64,000 bases of DNA from contig JAUYOW010000049.1 in assembly GCA_030697825.1 (NCBI GenBank), positions 12,221 to 76,220 on the forward strand, in the 5' to 3' direction. The notes under the pieces were generated by a model. It did not search any database. It was not told the origin of the DNA and saw only the letters and a list, made by a program, of their open reading frames with translations. Positions 4,056 to 52,353 of the stretch are shown here, piece by piece. How positions within the stretch are numbered: position 1 is the first letter of the stretch; each line of letters opens with the position of its first letter. Origin of the DNA: Gemmatimonadales bacterium (GTDB lineage: Bacteria; Gemmatimonadota; Gemmatimonadetes; Gemmatimonadales; JACORV01). The position numbers were made by a program, and so were the translations under genes.

Positions 4056-5606
4056 ATGCAGGCATTCCTCACCAACGTCGGCTACGCGCGCTGGGCGATC
4101 ACGGCGCTCCTCCTCATCCCGATGGCCGGCGCACTCATCATCCCGGGGTTGCCCACCCGCCTGGCGAAGCGCGTGGCGCTGTTTGTGACGCTGGTCGAGT
4201 TGGTGGTCTCGCTGGGCCTCTGGTGGGCGTACGATCCTTCCGGCGGGGCGTTCCAGCTCACCGCCACGGCGCCGTGGATCCCGGCGTGGGGCATCGCCTA
4301 CCGGGTGGCGATCGACGGCATCTCGCTCGCGATGGTTCTGCTCACGACCTTCCTCATGCCGCTCGCGGTGCTGGGGAGCTGGAGCGGCATCACGACGCGG
4401 GAGCGGTCGTTCTACAGCCTCATGCTAGTGCTCACCTCCGGCATGATTGGGGTGTTCGTCGCGACCGACCTGTTCCTCTTCTACGTGTTCTGGGAGGTGA
4501 TGCTGATCCCGATGTACTTCATCATCGGGGTCTGGGGCGGCAGGGGCCGGCTCTACGCGAGCATCAAGTTCTTCGTGTACACGATGCTCGGCTCGCTGCT
4601 CATGCTGGTCGCCATCCTCTACCTGTACTACAACGCCTACCGAACCGCCGGCGGGCCACCCTCCTTCGCGTACGACCGGATCCTCCAGCACGCCTCGGTG
4701 CCCATCGGCGCGCAGTTCTGGCTCTTCGCGGCGTTCTTCCTCGCGTTCGCCATCAAGGTGCCGATGGTGCCGTTCCACACCTGGCTCCCCGACGCGCACG
4801 TCGAGGCGCCGACGGCGGGTTCGGTCATCCTGGCGGGCATCCTCCTGAAGATGGGCACCTACGGCTTCATCCGCTTCGCGCTGCCGTTCTTCCCGCGAGT
4901 CGCCTTCGACCCGACGGTGAGCGCCGTCGTCATCACGCTGGCTGTGATCGGCATCGTATACGGGGCCCTCGTCGCGATGGTGCAACCCGACTTCAAGAAG
5001 CTGATCGCGTACTCGTCGGTGAGCCATATGGGGTTCGTCGTACTGGGCATCTGGGCACTCACCGTGGAGAGCGTCCAGGGCGCTCTGATGGTCATGATAA
5101 GCCACGGTATCTCGACCGGGGCGCTGTTCTTCCTGGTGGGCATGATCTACGAGCGGCGGCACAGCCGGATGATCGGCGACTTCGGCGGGATCGCGCGGGT
5201 GGTGCCGGCGTTCGCGGCCGTGCTCACCATCGTCAGCCTGTCGTCCATAGGGCTCCCCGGGACCAACGGCTTCGTCGGCGAGTTCCTGGTGCTGCTCGGC
5301 TCGTTCAAGACCCACCCGGTGGCCGCCGGGATCGCCACCACGGCCGTGATCCTCGCTGCCGCTTACCTGCTGTGGGCGCTGCTGCGCATGCTCTACGGCC
5401 CACTGGACAAGAAGGAGAACGAGTCGCTGACGGACCTCACGCCGCGCGAGTACGCGATCCTGGTCCCGCTGCTGGCCATGATCTTCTGGCTCGGCCTTTC
5501 GCCGGGGCCGATGCTGCGCAGGATGGAGCCGTCGGCGCGGAACTTCATCGAGTCGGTGCAGGGACCGGCCGGCGACGTGCGGGTCGCCGACAGGGAGCGC
5601 CGATAA
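4056..5606 (+). CDS. nuoM: NADH-quinone oxidoreductase subunit M
   Basis: ATG 4056 lies 5 nt after the nuoL stop. ND4-type motifs FWEVMLIPMYFIIGVWGG and WLPDAHVEAPTAGSV. Confidence 0.9.
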   Translation: MQAFLTNVGYARWAITALLLIPMAGALIIPGLPTRLAKRVALFVTLVELVVSLGLWWAYDPSGGAFQLTATAPWIPAWGIAYRVAIDGISLAMVLLTTFLMPLAVLGSWSGITTRERSFYSLMLVLTSGMIGVFVATDLFLFYVFWEVMLIPMYFIIGVWGGRGRLYASIKFFVYTMLGSLLMLVAILYLYYNAYRTAGGPPSFAYDRILQHASVPIGAQFWLFAAFFLAFAIKVPMVPFHTWLPDAHVEAPTAGSVILAGILLKMGTYGFIRFALPFFPRVAFDPTVSAVVITLAVIGIVYGALVAMVQPDFKKLIAYSSVSHMGFVVLGIWALTVESVQGALMVMISHGISTGALFFLVGMIYERRHSRMIGDFGGIARVVPAFAAVLTIVSLSSIGLPGTNGFVGEFLVLLGSFKTHPVAAGIATTAVILAAAYLLWALLRMLYGPLDKKENESLTDLTPREYAILVPLLAMIFWLGLSPGPMLRRMEPSARNFIESVQGPAGDVRVADRERR

Positions 5607-25417: not shown

Positions 25418-26035
25418 GTGCTGACCTGGCTCGCCGGGCTGCCGCCGCAGGGGATCTATGGCGCGCTGGCCCTGCTCGCCGCCCTGGAGAACATCGTGCC
25501 CCCCGTGCCCGCCGACCTGGCGGTGGCATTGGGGGCTTTTCTCGCCGCGCGGGACGACGCGCCGGTCTCGGTCACCGCCGTCTACATCGTGACCGTGGTG
25601 GCGAACGTCACGACCGCGATCGGGATGTACGCGGTCGCGCGCACCGTGGGGAAGAGCTTCCTCGAGTCCCGCACCGGGCAGCGCCTGCTCTCGGCGCGGT
25701 CGAAGGCGGCGCTGGAGCGAGAGTATCAGAGGCACCACCTCTGGGGGATCTTCGTTTCACGCTTCCTCCCCGGGTATCGTGCCGTGGTGCCGCCGTTCGC
25801 GGGCATGATCGGGCTGCCGGCCTCGAAGGCGCTTCCGCCCGTGATCCTCGCCACCGCCATCTACTACGCGGTGCTCGTCTGGGGTGCCCACCGGGTGGGA
25901 CAGAATTGGGAGTCGGTGCGGGCGTGGCTCGGCCACATCGGCATCGGCTTAGGGCTCGTCGCGATCGCCGTCACGTTGGTCGTGGGCTGGCTGGTCTGGC
26001 GTGCCCGGCGGCGAAGGACCGTGGATGGCGACTGA
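25418..26035 (+). CDS. DedA/YqaA-type membrane protein
   Basis: ENIVPPVPADL motif plus 4-5 TM helices. GTG 25418 was chosen as start; an in-frame CTG at 25406 is also possible. The ORF start at 24749 is rejected. Confidence 0.7.
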   Translation: MLTWLAGLPPQGIYGALALLAALENIVPPVPADLAVALGAFLAARDDAPVSVTAVYIVTVVANVTTAIGMYAVARTVGKSFLESRTGQRLLSARSKAALEREYQRHHLWGIFVSRFLPGYRAVVPPFAGMIGLPASKALPPVILATAIYYAVLVWGAHRVGQNWESVRAWLGHIGIGLGLVAIAVTLVVGWLVWRARRRRTVDGD

Positions 26036-26945
26036 GACCGGCCCCGGCCCCGACCCGCGCGCCTTCCTGCTCGAGCAGTTCGCGGACTACCTTTCGCTCG
26101 AGCGCGGCTCGTCACCCAACACGCTGGCGGCCTACCGGCGGGACTTGGCGCACCTGACGGACTTCCTCGCGACCCGCCGAGTCCGAGCGCCCTCGGGCGT
26201 TACCTCCACGCTGCTCAGGGACTTCATCTTTCACTTGAAGGACCTGGGGCTCGAGGCCTCCAGCATCCGCCGCCACATCTCGGCCACGCGCACGTACTTC
26301 AAGTTCCTGGCTGGTGAAGGGCACGTCATCCGCGACCCGAGCGACCGGCTGGCGAGTCCCAAGCGCTGGCGCACGCTGCCGGCCGTGCTCTCAATCACGG
26401 AGATGGAGCGTCTGCTCGCCGCTCCCAGCGCCGACGACCCGCTGGCCCGGCGCGACCGGGCGATCCTCGAGTTCGCCTACGCCACGGGCGCCCGCGTCAC
26501 GGAGCTGACTCGCGTCGCGCTGCGGGACGTGCTGTTCGATGATGGGCTGGTCCGCCTGTTCGGGAAGGGGAACAAGGAGCGCATCGTGCCGGTAGGAAGG
26601 CGGGCTCTGGGGGCCGTGGCGCTGTACGCTCGCGAAGTACGCCCCAGGATCGAGCGCGGGAAGGGGCAGGGGATCCTGTTCCTGAACGCCCGCGGCGGGC
26701 CGATGTCGAGGGTTGGGGTGTGGGGGATAATCAAGCGATGCGCCCGGGTGGCGGGCATCAGCAAGCGGGTAACGCCTCATACCCTGCGCCACACTTTTGC
26801 CACGCATCTCCTCGAGGGCGGGGCGGACCTCAGGGCCGTCCAGGAGATGCTGGGCCACGCAGACCTAAGCACCACACAGGTTTACACGCACGTGGACCGA
26901 GACTACCTTCGTAGCGTCCATAAGACCTATCATCCCCGCGCTTGA
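26025..26945 (+). CDS. xerD: site-specific tyrosine recombinase XerD
   Basis: NTLAAYRRDL, GKGNKERIVPVG and HTLRHTFATHLLEGGADLRAVQEMLGHADLSTTQVYTHV. The C-terminus ends in HPRA, as in E. coli XerD. Confidence 0.82.
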   Translation: MATETGPGPDPRAFLLEQFADYLSLERGSSPNTLAAYRRDLAHLTDFLATRRVRAPSGVTSTLLRDFIFHLKDLGLEASSIRRHISATRTYFKFLAGEGHVIRDPSDRLASPKRWRTLPAVLSITEMERLLAAPSADDPLARRDRAILEFAYATGARVTELTRVALRDVLFDDGLVRLFGKGNKERIVPVGRRALGAVALYAREVRPRIERGKGQGILFLNARGGPMSRVGVWGIIKRCARVAGISKRVTPHTLRHTFATHLLEGGADLRAVQEMLGHADLSTTQVYTHVDRDYLRSVHKTYHPRA

Positions 26946-28780
26946 ACTGTCCTGACTGCGGCACCCCGATCCCCGCTGGGGCGAGCACCTGCCCCTCGTG
27001 CGCCCGTGCGGTAGGGACCACCGCCCGGCATGTGGCCACGGGTGCGCTCACGCCCCCCGACATAGGGGTCCCGCCCCGGCCGATGAACATGGAGGACCTG
27101 CTCGGTCAGCGCCTCCAGGAAGCGCTCGGCGAGAACTACCAGGTCGAGGGGGTGTTGGGCGCCGGCGGCTTCGCGGTGGTGTTCCTGGTCCGCGACCTCA
27201 GCCTCAAGCGCAAACTGGCCGTGAAGGTGCTCTCCCCGGACCTCATCGCCTCGAAGACGGTGCTGGAGCGGTTCCGGCGTGAAGCCGAGACGGTCGCGCA
27301 GCTCCACCACCCGCACATCGTCCCGCTCCACTTCATCGGCCAGAAGGAAGACCTCCTCTACCTCGCGATGGAGTGCGTGGAGGGCGACACCCTGGCCGGC
27401 CGGATCGAGAAGGAGAAGCGGCTGCCGCCTGAGGACGTGGCGCGGCTGCTCCGCGAGATCGCCAGCGCGCTCGAGCACGCGCACAAGCGCGGCGTGATCC
27501 ATCGGGACATCAAGCCGCACAACGTGCTCATCGAAGGGGAGTCGGGGCGGGCGCTGGTCACCGATTTCGGCATCGCGCGCACGGCCGAAGGCGCGTCGCT
27601 CACCGCCTCGGGGATGGTGGTGGGCACGCCGCAGTACCTGAGTCCCGAGCAGGTGACCGGCACGGCCAGCGACCATCGCGCCGACATCTACGCGTTAGGT
27701 GTGATGGGCTACGAGATGCTCGCGGGGATCCCGCCGTTCACCGGCCCTACGCCCACCGCCGTGATGATGAAGCGCCTGGAGGGCGACCCGCCCAGGCTCG
27801 ACAAGTCGCGGCCGGACATCCCTCGACCGCTGCTCGACGTGATCAGCGGGTGCATGGCGACGGCGCCGGAGGACCGATTCCAGTCGGCGGGCGAAGTGGT
27901 GCGCGCGTTAGGCGGCGCGACGCCGGCCTCGGGGGGGCACCCCACGGCCGAGATCGTGCTGCGGATGCGGCGCCAGCGCCGGCGGTGGACGATGTCCTTT
28001 GGCTTCACCATCGCGGCCCTGGTCGTCGCCGGCGCGGTCACGGTGTGGTGGTGGGACGCTCGCTCGCGGGCCGGAAACGCGGCCGAGCACGCGGCGCGGG
28101 TGGACCCGGGGATGGTTGTGATCCCGGCCGGGCAGTACACCATCGGGCGTGACGACGGCCCCATCCCTTCGCGGCCCGCCCATCCGGTTCAGCTCGACTC
28201 GTTCGCCATCGATGCACACGAGGTGGCGGTCAGGGAGTTCAAGGCGTTTGCCAATGCGACGCGCGCGCCGCTGCCGTGGACGGCGGAGCCGGACAGCCTC
28301 ATCCCGGTGACGGGCGTGCTGTGGGCCGAGGCGGCACAGTACTGCGCCTGGCGCCACGACGGCGGACGACTGCCGACCGAAGAGGAGTGGGAGGCGTCAG
28401 CCCGCGGTCCGCAGGCGCTCGCCTATCCCTGGGGCAACGGGTGGGATCCGGTGGCCGCCAATACCGCCTCGAGCGGCAGGCAGAGCGCGGCGCGGGTGGG
28501 AAGCTTCCCGCGCGGGGCGAGCGCATCCGGCGTTCACGACCTCATCGGCAACGTGTGGGAGTGGACGTCGTCGAGGATGCTGCCCTATCCGGGTGGCCAG
28601 GCGCCGCCGGAGGGCGCCGACTCGTACGTGATCCGGGGCGGGGCCTTCAGCACCCCTGACGCGCTCGCCAACCCGACCCAGCGCGGGTACATCCCGTTCC
28701 GGGTCGACCGGCCGGCCCTGGGGGCGACGGGGTTCCGGTGCATGATGCCGCTGAGGCAGGGCACCCGCGCTCGCGGCTAG
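26942..28780 (+). CDS. membrane Ser/Thr protein kinase with N-terminal zinc ribbon and C-terminal FGE/SUMF1-like domain
   Basis: TTG start overlapping the xerD stop. CPDCG..CPSC ribbon. Kinase motifs GAGGFAVVFLV, AVKVL, HRDIKPHNVLI, DFGIAR, GTPQYLSPEQ. TM helix FTIAALVVAGAVTVWWW. FGE-type blocks MVVIPAGQYTIGRDD, NVWEWTSS, RGGAF. Confidence 0.85.
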   Translation: MNCPDCGTPIPAGASTCPSCARAVGTTARHVATGALTPPDIGVPPRPMNMEDLLGQRLQEALGENYQVEGVLGAGGFAVVFLVRDLSLKRKLAVKVLSPDLIASKTVLERFRREAETVAQLHHPHIVPLHFIGQKEDLLYLAMECVEGDTLAGRIEKEKRLPPEDVARLLREIASALEHAHKRGVIHRDIKPHNVLIEGESGRALVTDFGIARTAEGASLTASGMVVGTPQYLSPEQVTGTASDHRADIYALGVMGYEMLAGIPPFTGPTPTAVMMKRLEGDPPRLDKSRPDIPRPLLDVISGCMATAPEDRFQSAGEVVRALGGATPASGGHPTAEIVLRMRRQRRRWTMSFGFTIAALVVAGAVTVWWWDARSRAGNAAEHAARVDPGMVVIPAGQYTIGRDDGPIPSRPAHPVQLDSFAIDAHEVAVREFKAFANATRAPLPWTAEPDSLIPVTGVLWAEAAQYCAWRHDGGRLPTEEEWEASARGPQALAYPWGNGWDPVAANTASSGRQSAARVGSFPRGASASGVHDLIGNVWEWTSSRMLPYPGGQAPPEGADSYVIRGGAFSTPDALANPTQRGYIPFRVDRPALGATGFRCMMPLRQGTRARG

Positions 28781-49805: not shown

Positions 49806-50520
49806 GCGCGCGCTCGTCATCATCCCGACCTACAACGAGCACCAGAACCTCCCCAAGCTGGTGCCGCAGATCCTCGAGCAGGACCCGCGAATCGAGGTGC
49901 TGGTCGTGGACGACAACTCGCCCGACGGTACCGGCGAGCTGGCCGACGCGCTGGCTTCGGCCGAGCCGCGGGTGCACGTGCTGCACCGCGGCGGGAAGCA
50001 GGGCCTCGGCACGGCTTACGTGACCGGGTTCCGGTGGGCCATCGAGCGCGGGTTCGACTACGTGTTCGAGATGGACGCGGACTTCTCCCACGACCCGAAA
50101 CACCTGCCCATCTTCCTCGCCGAAATCAGCGATGCAGACCTGGTGATAGGGTCGCGGTACCTCGACAAGCGCGTCACCGTCGTGAACTGGCCGATGACGC
50201 GACTGCTCCTCTCGTACTTCGCCAACGTGTACGCGCGCTGGGTGACGGGGCTGAAGCTCTGGGACTCGACGGGCGGCTTCAAGTGCTACCGCAGGCGGGT
50301 GCTCGAGGCAGTGGACCTCGACCGCGTCCGCTCCAACGGCTATTCATTCCAGATCGAGATGTCGTTCCGGGCCTGGCGGAAAGGGTTCCGCCTGAAGGAG
50401 ATCACCATCCTGTTCACCGACCGAAGCCTCGGCCACAGCAAGATGTCCCGCGGCATCATCTGGGAGGCGGTCTGGATGGTGTGGCGGCTTCGATGGTGGG
50501 CTCTGGCGGGGCGGGTATGA
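49795..50520 (+). CDS. polyprenol-phosphate mannose (Dpm1/Ppm1-like) synthase, GT2
   Basis: LVIIPTYNEHQNL, VVDDNSPDGT, EMDADFSHDP. 241 aa, soluble type. Confidence 0.8.
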   Translation: MPSERALVIIPTYNEHQNLPKLVPQILEQDPRIEVLVVDDNSPDGTGELADALASAEPRVHVLHRGGKQGLGTAYVTGFRWAIERGFDYVFEMDADFSHDPKHLPIFLAEISDADLVIGSRYLDKRVTVVNWPMTRLLLSYFANVYARWVTGLKLWDSTGGFKCYRRRVLEAVDLDRVRSNGYSFQIEMSFRAWRKGFRLKEITILFTDRSLGHSKMSRGIIWEAVWMVWRLRWWALAGRV

Positions 50521-51365
50521 GACCTGGCACCGTCTTCTACAAGATGTCAGGCTCCGGCAACGACTTTGTGATGTTCGACGGACGGTATGCCTACCTCGCG
50601 GAGCTGACGGCCCCGACCATCCGCGCGCTCTGCGACCGCCGGCACGGAGTCGGCGCCGACGGCGTGATCCTGCTGGACCCGGGGGCTCCGGCGGGCGTCC
50701 ACTTCGCGTTCCACTTCTGGAACAGCGACGGGTCGCCGGGCCCGATGTGCGGGAACGGGGCCCTTTGCGCCGTTCGCCTGGCCACGACCATCGAGCTGGC
50801 TCCCACGACCGACGACGTACGCTTCGTCACGCCGGTAGGAACGCACCGTGGCCGAGTGATTGGAGGGGAGTCCGAGATCTTCTTCCCCGATTGCGAGATG
50901 CCCCGGCCCGTCACAGTGCCCACAGCCGAAGGGGAGCGGACCCCAATGGCCTGCAACCCGTCGGTACCGCACCTGATTCTCTTCGTGGACGACGTGAACC
51001 AGATTCCGCTGGAAACCCGTGGCCCGCCGCTCCGGCACCACCCGGTTCTCGGTCCCGGAGGCGCCAACGTCAACTGGGTCGCGCCGGCGGGGGACGGGTC
51101 CTTCCGTATGAGGACCTTCGAGCGCGGCGTCGAGGGCGAGACGCTGTCCTGCGGCACGGGGGCCGTAGCGTGCGCCTTGGCACTGGAGGAGCAGGGACTC
51201 GCCAAGCCGCCGGTGAGGATCTGGACCCGGAGCGGCATGCCGCTAGAAGTGACTTGGGAGCTTAACAAGCGTGGAGCCACGTCGATACGGCTCCGCGGCG
51301 AGGGGCGACTGGTCTTCCGCGGCATCGTTGGCGACATTCCAACCGGCGGTCCTACAAAGGCTTAG
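50517..51365 (+). CDS. dapF: diaminopimelate epimerase
   Basis: MSGSGNDFVMFDG, and both catalytic Cys motifs MCGNGALC and SCGTGAVA. ATGA overlap with the upstream gene. Confidence 0.9.
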   Translation: MRPGTVFYKMSGSGNDFVMFDGRYAYLAELTAPTIRALCDRRHGVGADGVILLDPGAPAGVHFAFHFWNSDGSPGPMCGNGALCAVRLATTIELAPTTDDVRFVTPVGTHRGRVIGGESEIFFPDCEMPRPVTVPTAEGERTPMACNPSVPHLILFVDDVNQIPLETRGPPLRHHPVLGPGGANVNWVAPAGDGSFRMRTFERGVEGETLSCGTGAVACALALEEQGLAKPPVRIWTRSGMPLEVTWELNKRGATSIRLRGEGRLVFRGIVGDIPTGGPTKA

Positions 51366-51383
51366 CCGTAGGTTTGCTGTTTT
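51351..51383 (+). terminator. weak candidate intrinsic terminator after dapF
   Basis: CCTAC-AAA-GGC-TTA-GCC-GTAGG interrupted stem, followed by TTTGCTGTTTT. Confidence 0.3.
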
Positions 51384-51403
51384 CCACCTCTTTCAACACT
51401 GCA

Positions 51404-51431
51404 ATTTAACATAACATATCTTATACGAAGT
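51404..51431 (-). other. dif: dif-like XerC/XerD chromosome dimer resolution site
   Basis: Minus-strand reading is ACTTCGTATAA GATATG TTATGTTAAAT. The XerD arm is 11/11 identical to E. coli dif and the XerC arm matches at 7/11. 11+6+11 architecture. Lies in the AT-rich island of the sole convergent gap. Confidence 0.75.
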
Positions 51432-51531
51432 GGCGGATAGGTGCACGGAAGGTGCGAAAACACTGCCCGGCTCCTCGTTCAGGCGCCTGGGCCGGCGTCG
51501 CTTTTAGAGCACTTGGCGGGTGTGATCCCGG

Positions 51532-52242
51532 TCAGCCGGCCCTCGGCCGAAGACCCTGTCCGCGACGAGTCTTGGGCGGCGGCGGGACCGTTCCGCCAAT
51601 CTCGGCCATCCGCACCCGGGCTTCCGCGGCCTGGTCGAGCTCGGCGTACTTCTCCAACACCTCGGCGAGGGCGGTGCGCGCTCCGGCGGTGTCACCGGCG
51701 ACGGCCAAAGCCCGGCCGGCGTCGATCAGGTACTGGGCCTTGAGGAAGTCGAGCGGTGCGGCCGCAGCAGCTTGGCGGTAAGCCTCCCCCGCCTCCCTTG
51801 GCTTGTTTTCGTCCTCCAGGCCTCCACCCAACAACCCGTACGCCGACGCCTTCATGTAATCCGGATGGCGGGCACCCACGAACTCCTGAAGCGCGGCCAC
51901 CGCACTGTCTCGTTGACCCTGAAGGAGCCGGATCTGGTTGAGCAGGATGAACGCCTCGTCGGCCGCCCTGGTGCCCCCGAACCTCTGGACGACTCCCGCG
52001 AGATCCCGTGCGGCGAGCGGCAGGTTCCCCGATTCGGCGCTGGATCGGGCGCTCGTCAGCGCCTGCGACGCAAACGCTTCCTTGCGCTGTGAGGAGACGA
52101 CGTACAGCCAGCTGCCGCCGCCGATCGCGGCCACCAGTCCGGCGCCGATCGCCAGCTTCCGCGCGTTCTCCTTGGCCCAAGCCTCCCAATCCTGCTGGGC
52201 CACAGATACCGTCGAACCAGTCACCGGTGCCGTCATCGTCAC
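51532..52242 (-). CDS. YfgM-like membrane-anchored TPR-like protein
   Basis: N-terminal anchor LAIGAGLVAAIGGGSWLYVV, followed by helical repeats with many Ala/Leu/Gln. The family assignment is tentative. Confidence 0.5.
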   Translation of the reverse strand: MTMTAPVTGSTVSVAQQDWEAWAKENARKLAIGAGLVAAIGGGSWLYVVSSQRKEAFASQALTSARSSAESGNLPLAARDLAGVVQRFGGTRAADEAFILLNQIRLLQGQRDSAVAALQEFVGARHPDYMKASAYGLLGGGLEDENKPREAGEAYRQAAAAAPLDFLKAQYLIDAGRALAVAGDTAGARTALAEVLEKYAELDQAAEARVRMAEIGGTVPPPPKTRRGQGLRPRAG

Positions 52243-52278: not shown

Positions 52279-52353
52279 TGCCCCTGGGGTGACTCGAACA
52301 CCCGGCCAACGGTTTAGGAAACCGCTGCTCTATCCAAGCTGAGCTACAGGGGC
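52279..52353 (-). tRNA. tRNA-Arg (anticodon CCT)
   Basis: Cloverleaf read by hand: acceptor GCCCCTG/CAGGGGC, D stem GCTC/GAGC, anticodon stem GCGGT/ACCGT with loop TTCCTAA, T arm GGGTG-TTCGAGT-CACCC. CCA is not encoded. Confidence 0.9.

Follow-up and report, generated by a model that had tools for sequence, protein, structure and literature searches.

Chromosomal dif sites are not known to depend on sequence-specific accessory DNA. At cer and psi, accessory DNA of about 180 bp lies on the XerC side and binds PepA together with ArgR or ArcA. The dif sites of Escherichia coli (GGTGCGCATAATGTATATTATGTTAAAT) and Bacillus subtilis (ACTTCCTAGAATATATATTATGTAAACT) have been published (PMC3025954), and FtsK of E. 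coli requires about 8 nt adjoining the XerD arm (PMC2673442). For Gemmatimonas aurantiaca T-27, a unique dif site, AATGCGTATAA-TACATG-TTATGTAAACT, has been predicted (Kono et al., 2011; PMC3025954, supplementary file 2). It lies 0.011 (in units of the angle column) from the GC-skew shift point of that organism (PMC3025954).

The consensus of the DnaA box is given as TTATCCACA or TTWTNCACA (PMC11317965). Nearly all chromosomal targets of E. coli DnaA are bound as tandem box pairs, for which a spacing of 2-3 bp is preferred, and the protein can block RNA polymerase, thereby acting as a transcription roadblock (PMC11317965).

The locus described here lies in a 64-kb stretch of Gemmatimonadota DNA ("the window", meaning the whole stretch that was analysed). 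In our reading, a 28-bp sequence in this window is a dif site for XerC and XerD that lies in a Gemmatimonadota chromosome, at or near its terminus; judged from its sequence and its conservation, this reading has a probability of roughly 0.85. A dif site as such is an ordinary, known kind of site, and the dif of this phylum was already predicted in 2011. The composite architecture, in which dif is joined by an array of DnaA-box-like repeats, appears to be new. Literature searches revealed no description of DnaA boxes beside dif, of a box composite on the XerD side, or of a phylum-wide linkage of dif to dapF.

The 28-bp site and its setting in the window

A sequence-only reading of the window had pointed to a dif-like 28-mer with 11+6+11 architecture at 51404-51431. 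The plus strand at these positions reads ATTTAACATAACATATCTTATACGAAGT, and the reverse complement displays the architecture claimed, with imperfectly inverted arms whose inner ends are ATAA and TTAT (Table 1). The E. coli and B. subtilis dif sequences quoted in that reading agree with the published ones, and its arm comparisons hold as well: besides the complete identity of the XerD arm to that of E. coli, the XerC arm matches its E. coli counterpart at 7 of 11 positions, including the ATAA end, and is closer to that of B. subtilis (9 of 11; counted by eye).

Table 1. Coordinates of the main features in the window.
Feature	Position	Strand	Remarks
xerD, tyrosine recombinase	26001..26945	+	TIGR02225, 344 bits (cut-off 329.6)
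dapF, diaminopimelate epimerase	50517..51365	+	Last plus-strand gene; TIGR00652, 171.7 bits (cut-off 114.65)
Box A, TTTTCCACC	51380..51388	+	DnaA-box-like 9-mer, -24..-16 from the XerD arm; 7/8 matches to TTnTCCACA
Box B, CTTTCAACA	51390..51398	+	-14..-6, offset from box A by 10 bp and separated from the XerD arm by 5 bp; 6/8 matches
dif site, 28 bp	51404..51431	-	Minus-strand reading ACTTCGTATAA-GATATG-TTATGTTAAAT
Predicted XerD-binding arm	51404..51414	-	TTATGTTAAAT; faces dapF; 11/11 identical to E. coli dif
Central 6-bp region	51415..51420	-	GATATG; putative strand-exchange zone
XerC-type arm	51421..51431	-	ACTTCGTATAA
TPR_21/YbgF-like gene	51532..52242	-	First minus-strand gene, convergent with dapF; TPR_21 in relatives too
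tRNA-Arg(CCT)	52279-52353	-	About 850 bp to the right of dif, flanked by the TPR gene and apt

A search for ATAA-N6-TTATGTTAAAT with up to three mismatches returned one match in the 64-kb window, against 0.01 expected from shuffled sequences; when the XerD arm was searched for by itself, allowing up to two mismatches, this site was again the only match in the window. The 28-mer with the lowest GC content of the window (51398-51425; 0.21, the runner-up having 0.36) and the corresponding 60-mer (51369-51428; 0.33) both overlap the AT-rich island that had been noted at about 51375-51432. Each of the two arms also occurs, without a change, in chromosomal dif sites of other bacteria. This was revealed by a scan of reference genomes with the pattern TTCGTATAA-N6-TTATGTTAAAT, in which the matches listed were pdif sites of Acinetobacter and dif sites of proteobacteria and in which ACTTCGTATAA was the left arm in at least 30 sites.

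Genes were accepted as supported on the basis of GC3 or a match to a Pfam or NCBIfam family. The plus-strand genes left of the site include those for nuo subunits, a UPF0182 gene, plsX, fabH, fabF, mqn radical-SAM genes, ispF, xerD (whose true start is perhaps at 26025), a Ser/Thr kinase gene, pyrG, rpoN, glycosyltransferase genes, and a YfhO-like gene. To the right of the tRNA gene, the minus strand encodes apt, an acylphosphatase gene, a DedA/UptA gene, pcm, surE, a GT2 gene, a merR-type gene, and gpsA. Minus-strand candidate ORFs left of dif had no family matches. All supported genes thus lie on the plus strand to the left and on the minus strand to the right, so that dif occupies the only strand switch of the window, in line with the earlier description of a sole convergent gap. 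The xerD gene noted about 25 kb away was recovered as a TIGR02225 member. Neither a second Xer-type gene (xerC) nor ftsK or dnaA was found within the 64-kb window. No integrase or other sign of an island was seen beside the tRNA gene. A scan of the convergent gap detected no promoter-like or terminator-like sites, and no intrinsic terminator was found between dapF and dif.

Conservation among relatives and the replication terminus

Loci around dapF were collected from relatives in two ways, by exact-protein look-up (DapF 98 to 64% identical) and by DapF alignment, which yielded 80 metagenome loci (67 to 43% identical). Proteins labelled "Gemmatimonadales bacterium" by NCBI occur in both the close and the most distant DapF sets. 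Look-ups with exact proteins of the window matched SurE and GpsA on short Logan contigs of run SRR13727529 only, and Apt had no match. A non-redundant set of 69 junctions sharing less than 85% mutual identity was aligned on dif without gaps.

Every locus with enough DNA past dapF carries one dif-like site 29-250 bp 3' of the dapF stop codon, and the XerD arm is on the dapF side in all of the relatives' loci. The seeming exception, L191, possesses a diverged Gemmatimonas-type site that was overlooked by the reference pattern. A second dif-like match in these loci, which extend up to 21 kb each, was present in L207 only and is weaker (5 mismatches). The mean majority fraction per column in the 69 junctions is 0.97 for the XerD arm, 0.89 for the XerC arm, and 0.80 for the centre, compared with about 0.42-0.43 for the flanks (0.43 on the XerC side, where nothing is conserved). 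With the exception of the XerD-side flank, which carries the boxes considered below, arms under strong purifying selection, a freer centre, and divergent flanks make up the pattern expected of an Xer site. The commonest XerD arm is TTATGTTAAGT, and the CGTATAA of the XerC arm is almost invariant. As many as 16 kinds of central hexamer occur among the 69 junctions, GATATG being the commonest (35). The window is alone among these junctions in having an XerD arm that ends in ...AAAT, as in E. coli; the ending ...AAGT occurs in 53 of the 69, including all closest relatives.

Database gene calls place the junction of plus-strand and minus-strand genes at dif in the relatives as well. Plus-strand genes that GC3 suggested to the right of dif in several of them proved to be false calls; the database calls at these positions are minus-strand TPR_21 genes. 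The spacer and XerD arm of the T-27 site recur past dapF in L192, L202, and L208, and a closely related site is present in L191; boxes accompany all four. Sites of the T-27 type following dapF tie this family of sites to the skew-defined terminus of a complete genome.

The linkage of dif to the 3' end of dapF extends across the Gemmatimonadota (L123-L213, DapF 44-98%) and is unusually stable for a terminus. In E. coli, xerC sits in the dapF operon, a parallel that may be coincidental or may be a clue. Extra genes are located on the XerC side of dif in L130 (10926-20858), L131, L132, L136, L145, and L148. In some lineages, a plus-strand gene of the beta-lactamase family is located between dif and the TPR gene. 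Beyond the TPR gene, L130 and L132 possess a type I restriction-modification system, accompanied by a SIR2-like gene in L130, and L131 contains a DUF1801 gene. These differences suggest plasticity near the terminus that involves no second dif-like site.

The placement of the site at or near the replication terminus, for which it was a candidate in the sequence-only reading, is supported by the conservation in relatives, by the position of dif in G. aurantiaca, and by the switch in gene orientation. That reading also expected skew and orientation to flip near 51.4 kb, which was borne out in part. Gene strand and the sign of the mean GC skew do switch at dif (+0.011 on the left and -0.028 on the right, the polarity expected at a terminus, with the skew confounded with gene orientation), but the cumulative skew reaches its maximum within the window at 28,643, near xerD and about 23 kb from dif. 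In-window skew therefore does not pin the terminus by itself and is weak evidence at this scale; the skew change-point, which falls at 21-29 kb, was dropped as support. The region between 28.6 and 51.4 kb has a slightly negative skew although its genes are all on the plus strand. When 3 kb per side were compared, the skew was higher on the left than on the right in 30 of 32 non-redundant relatives, a comparison that is confounded with gene orientation and shared ancestry.

Two short words show a strand bias in the window. The strand counts of GGGNAGGG, a candidate FtsK-orienting (KOPS-like) word, are 9:3 left of dif and 2:5 right of it, numbers that are small and confounded with gene orientation. 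For GAGAAGGG, the recognition word of SpoIIIE in B. subtilis, five plus-strand and no minus-strand copies were found left of dif (window positions 1-51403); these are few and confounded in the same way. The polarity of both words is suggestive of polar words.

The box array beside the XerD arm

A conserved array of boxes adjoining the XerD arm had been overlooked in the sequence-only reading. Boxes were scored by the number of matches at the eight specified positions of TTnTCCACA. They are arranged head-to-tail with a 10-bp period, that is, with 1-bp spacing, and all have the same orientation. The profile of box A over the 69 junctions is T47, T68, n, T66, C68, C64, A64, C65, A48, and that of box B is T54, T47, n, T36, C44, C38, A48, C66, A56. 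Box A scores at least 7/8 in 66 of 67 lineages and is never inverted; a degenerate box B is seen in about half of the lineages, the window among them. A third box, complete or partial, is found at -34 in many lineages, and the arrays of Gemmatimonas-like lineages comprise up to four boxes. Box B is separated from the XerD arm by 5 bp, or by 6 bp in Gemmatimonas-like lineages. Several lineages display the DnaA-box consensus exactly or at 8 of 9 positions (TTATCCACA/T/C, TTTTCCACA, and TTGTCCACA). In one lineage (L180, L184, and L201, at about 140 bp past dapF), box A is kept as TTGTCCACA and the position of box B is occupied by the unrecognisable GGCCGTGCG, which makes box A the invariant anchor of the array.

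The distance of the boxes to dif is fixed and that to the dapF stop codon ranges over 29-250 bp; the boxes thus belong to dif and not to dapF. Boxes scoring at least 7/8 occur at a background density of 0.30 per kb (both strands, 567 kb of Gemmatimonadota DNA), compared with 125 in the 3.3 kb beside XerD arms. Tandem box pairs number 60 at dif and three elsewhere in the 567 kb. These three are themselves dif junctions that the scan had overlooked, two being truncated by contig ends and one being the diverged dif of L191. Since the strand counts of TCCACA left of dif are 7:7, with no polarity towards dif, the boxes are not FtsK-orienting (KOPS-like) words. Similarity of the boxes to IHF sites, sigma-54 sites, parS half-sites, or the 16S rRNA 3' end was rejected by sequence inspection.

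Among the matches listed for other bacteria, 116 non-redundant proteobacterial dif or pdif sites with the same arms had no boxes except for L075 and L112. These two were set aside as a different situation, being AT-rich Aliarcobacter contigs with two tandem Xer sites. A distance of about 25 bp, which contains TTTTCCAC-like words, separates the two Xer-type sites (L075:3585-3732 and its equivalent in L112), an arrangement that probably represents pdif or IMEX-type junctions. No boxes were detected at 38 Xer sites of a viral collection that have the same XerD arm, the top match being 5/8. One contig of that collection, L245 (4.6 kb), carries the same Xer site near both ends (71-94 and 4298-4321) with near-identical upstream flanks, as would suit a small element that is circularly permuted or an IMEX lying between its attachment sites. 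Judged from these comparisons, dif and its fixed-register boxes are a composite element of about 53 bp that is specific to this phylum.

On the model of E. coli, the two 11-bp arms would be bound by XerD, whose gene lies 25 kb upstream, and by an XerC partner that has no gene in the window. Strand exchange across the 6-bp centre, with XerD activated by FtsK, would then resolve chromosome dimers at cell division. Our best guess is that the box array is bound by a protein, most plausibly DnaA, which is the best sequence match, and that this protein gates or modulates the activation of XerD. The stretch corresponding to that required by E. coli FtsK is here made up of the 5-bp gap and the first nucleotides of box B; a protein bound to the array would thus sit on the landing place of FtsK or compete with FtsK for it. 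It might also halt read-through transcription from dapF before dif, a possible shielding that is suggested by the absence of a terminator. The broader proposal, that DnaA or a dedicated factor on the array controls the access of FtsK to XerD and so links dimer resolution or termination to the state of the replication cycle, is put forward tentatively and is in our view rather doubtful.

Two other readings of the 28-mer have to be considered. A chance AT-rich palindrome or a transcription terminator would suit the base composition of the site and its location between convergent genes, but the expectation of 0.01 matches and the lack of any terminator-like hairpin in the scan argue against it; arm-specific conservation around a variable centre over 69 lineages is unlike a terminator and refutes this reading, whose probability we consider negligible. 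The site could also belong to a mobile element, as an IMEX attachment junction, a plasmid pdif, or a cer/psi-type site. The same arm combination is abundant on pdif modules of Acinetobacter plasmids and on the 38 viral-collection contigs, and the beta-lactamase-family gene and the type I restriction-modification system on the XerC side in some relatives would agree with such an origin. Against it stand the flanks, which consist of housekeeping genes and tRNAs, the retention of the position across the phylum, the lack of conserved accessory DNA on the XerC side, and the absence of dapF and boxes from all viral contigs. Moreover, no second site, even a degenerate one, occurs in the 64 kb, and the same is true of the relatives' loci save for the weak match in L207. 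A mobile-element origin is, on this balance, very improbable.

With the 28-mer taken as dif, the boxes allow alternatives to DnaA. Winged-helix response regulators typically bind repeats with a 10-bp head-to-tail period. This period, the 1-bp spacing in place of the 2-3 bp preferred by E. coli DnaA, and the only moderate conservation of box position 9 (48/69 in box A) speak against DnaA and for another protein that binds direct repeats, such as an OmpR/PhoB-type winged-helix regulator or a lineage-specific Xer accessory or termination protein. The degeneracy of box B in about half of the lineages is a further point against DnaA. We give such an alternative binder a serious chance, somewhat below even. 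What favours DnaA over it are the lineages with an exact or 8/9 DnaA-box consensus and the variable box position, which is position 3, a position also variable among bacterial DnaA boxes; furthermore, the only linked regulator gene is of the MerR type, a family that binds palindromes. It is also conceivable that the boxes have nothing to do with Xer and form a DnaA titration or regulatory cluster, or a roadblock terminator of dapF, that happens to share the gap. DnaA-box clusters outside origins do exist (datA and DARS), the array lies between dapF and dif, no intrinsic terminator follows dapF, and DnaA can block RNA polymerase (PMC11317965). A site independent of dif would, however, be expected to drift in spacing, and the register to dif is fixed down to 44% DapF identity while the distance to the dapF stop varies over 29-250 bp. 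The array also covers the XerD-adjacent nucleotides that E. coli FtsK requires (PMC2673442). Because the box-dif spacing is held fixed across the phylum, we consider a role unrelated to Xer unlikely.

With the dif call, the terminus can be marked reliably in a poorly studied phylum, known mainly from metagenomes, and the call may serve for assembly checks of MAGs, replichore assignment, and estimation of growth rate from coverage. The composite places a putative protein-binding array in exact register with the XerD arm throughout the phylum, on nucleotides used by FtsK in E. coli. If DnaA binds this array, the initiator would be linked physically and directly to the final step of chromosome segregation. 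The composite is open to testing in Gemmatimonas aurantiaca T-27, a cultured type strain.

Comparison with known Xer sites and DnaA boxes

The site shares with E. coli dif its length of 28 bp, the 11-6-11 layout, an identical XerD arm (TTATGTTAAAT), and an XerC arm ending in ATAA. The setting also resembles the dif/XerC-XerD/FtsK system of E. coli in that an XerD equivalog is encoded nearby and the site lies where gene orientation and the sign of the mean GC skew change. It differs in the XerC arm, which matches at 7/11 positions, and in the centre, which is GATATG here and TGTATA in E. coli. The DNA adjacent to the XerD arm is non-specific at E. coli dif (PMC2673442), whereas a conserved box array occupies it here.

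The dif of G. aurantiaca T-27 comes from the same phylum and is of the same type (CGTATAA ... ATG-TTATGT.AA..), with two differences in the 11 positions of each arm and TACATG as the centre. It was published as a 28-mer alone; the linkage to dapF and the flanking boxes were not reported there (PMC3025954).

As at cer and psi, an Xer core is located next to conserved DNA. Dependence on extra proteins is known of cer and psi and is proposed for the site described here. Unlike the accessory DNA of cer and psi, the array is chromosomal and short (25-45 bp), and it is made up of direct 9-mer repeats located on the XerD side. In being composed of head-to-tail, closely spaced 9-mers that match TTATCCACA, it resembles tandem DnaA-box pairs and the clusters datA and DARS; it is set apart from the DnaA pairs of E. 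coli by its 1-bp spacing, as against 2-3 bp, and by its location, abutting dif at the terminus.
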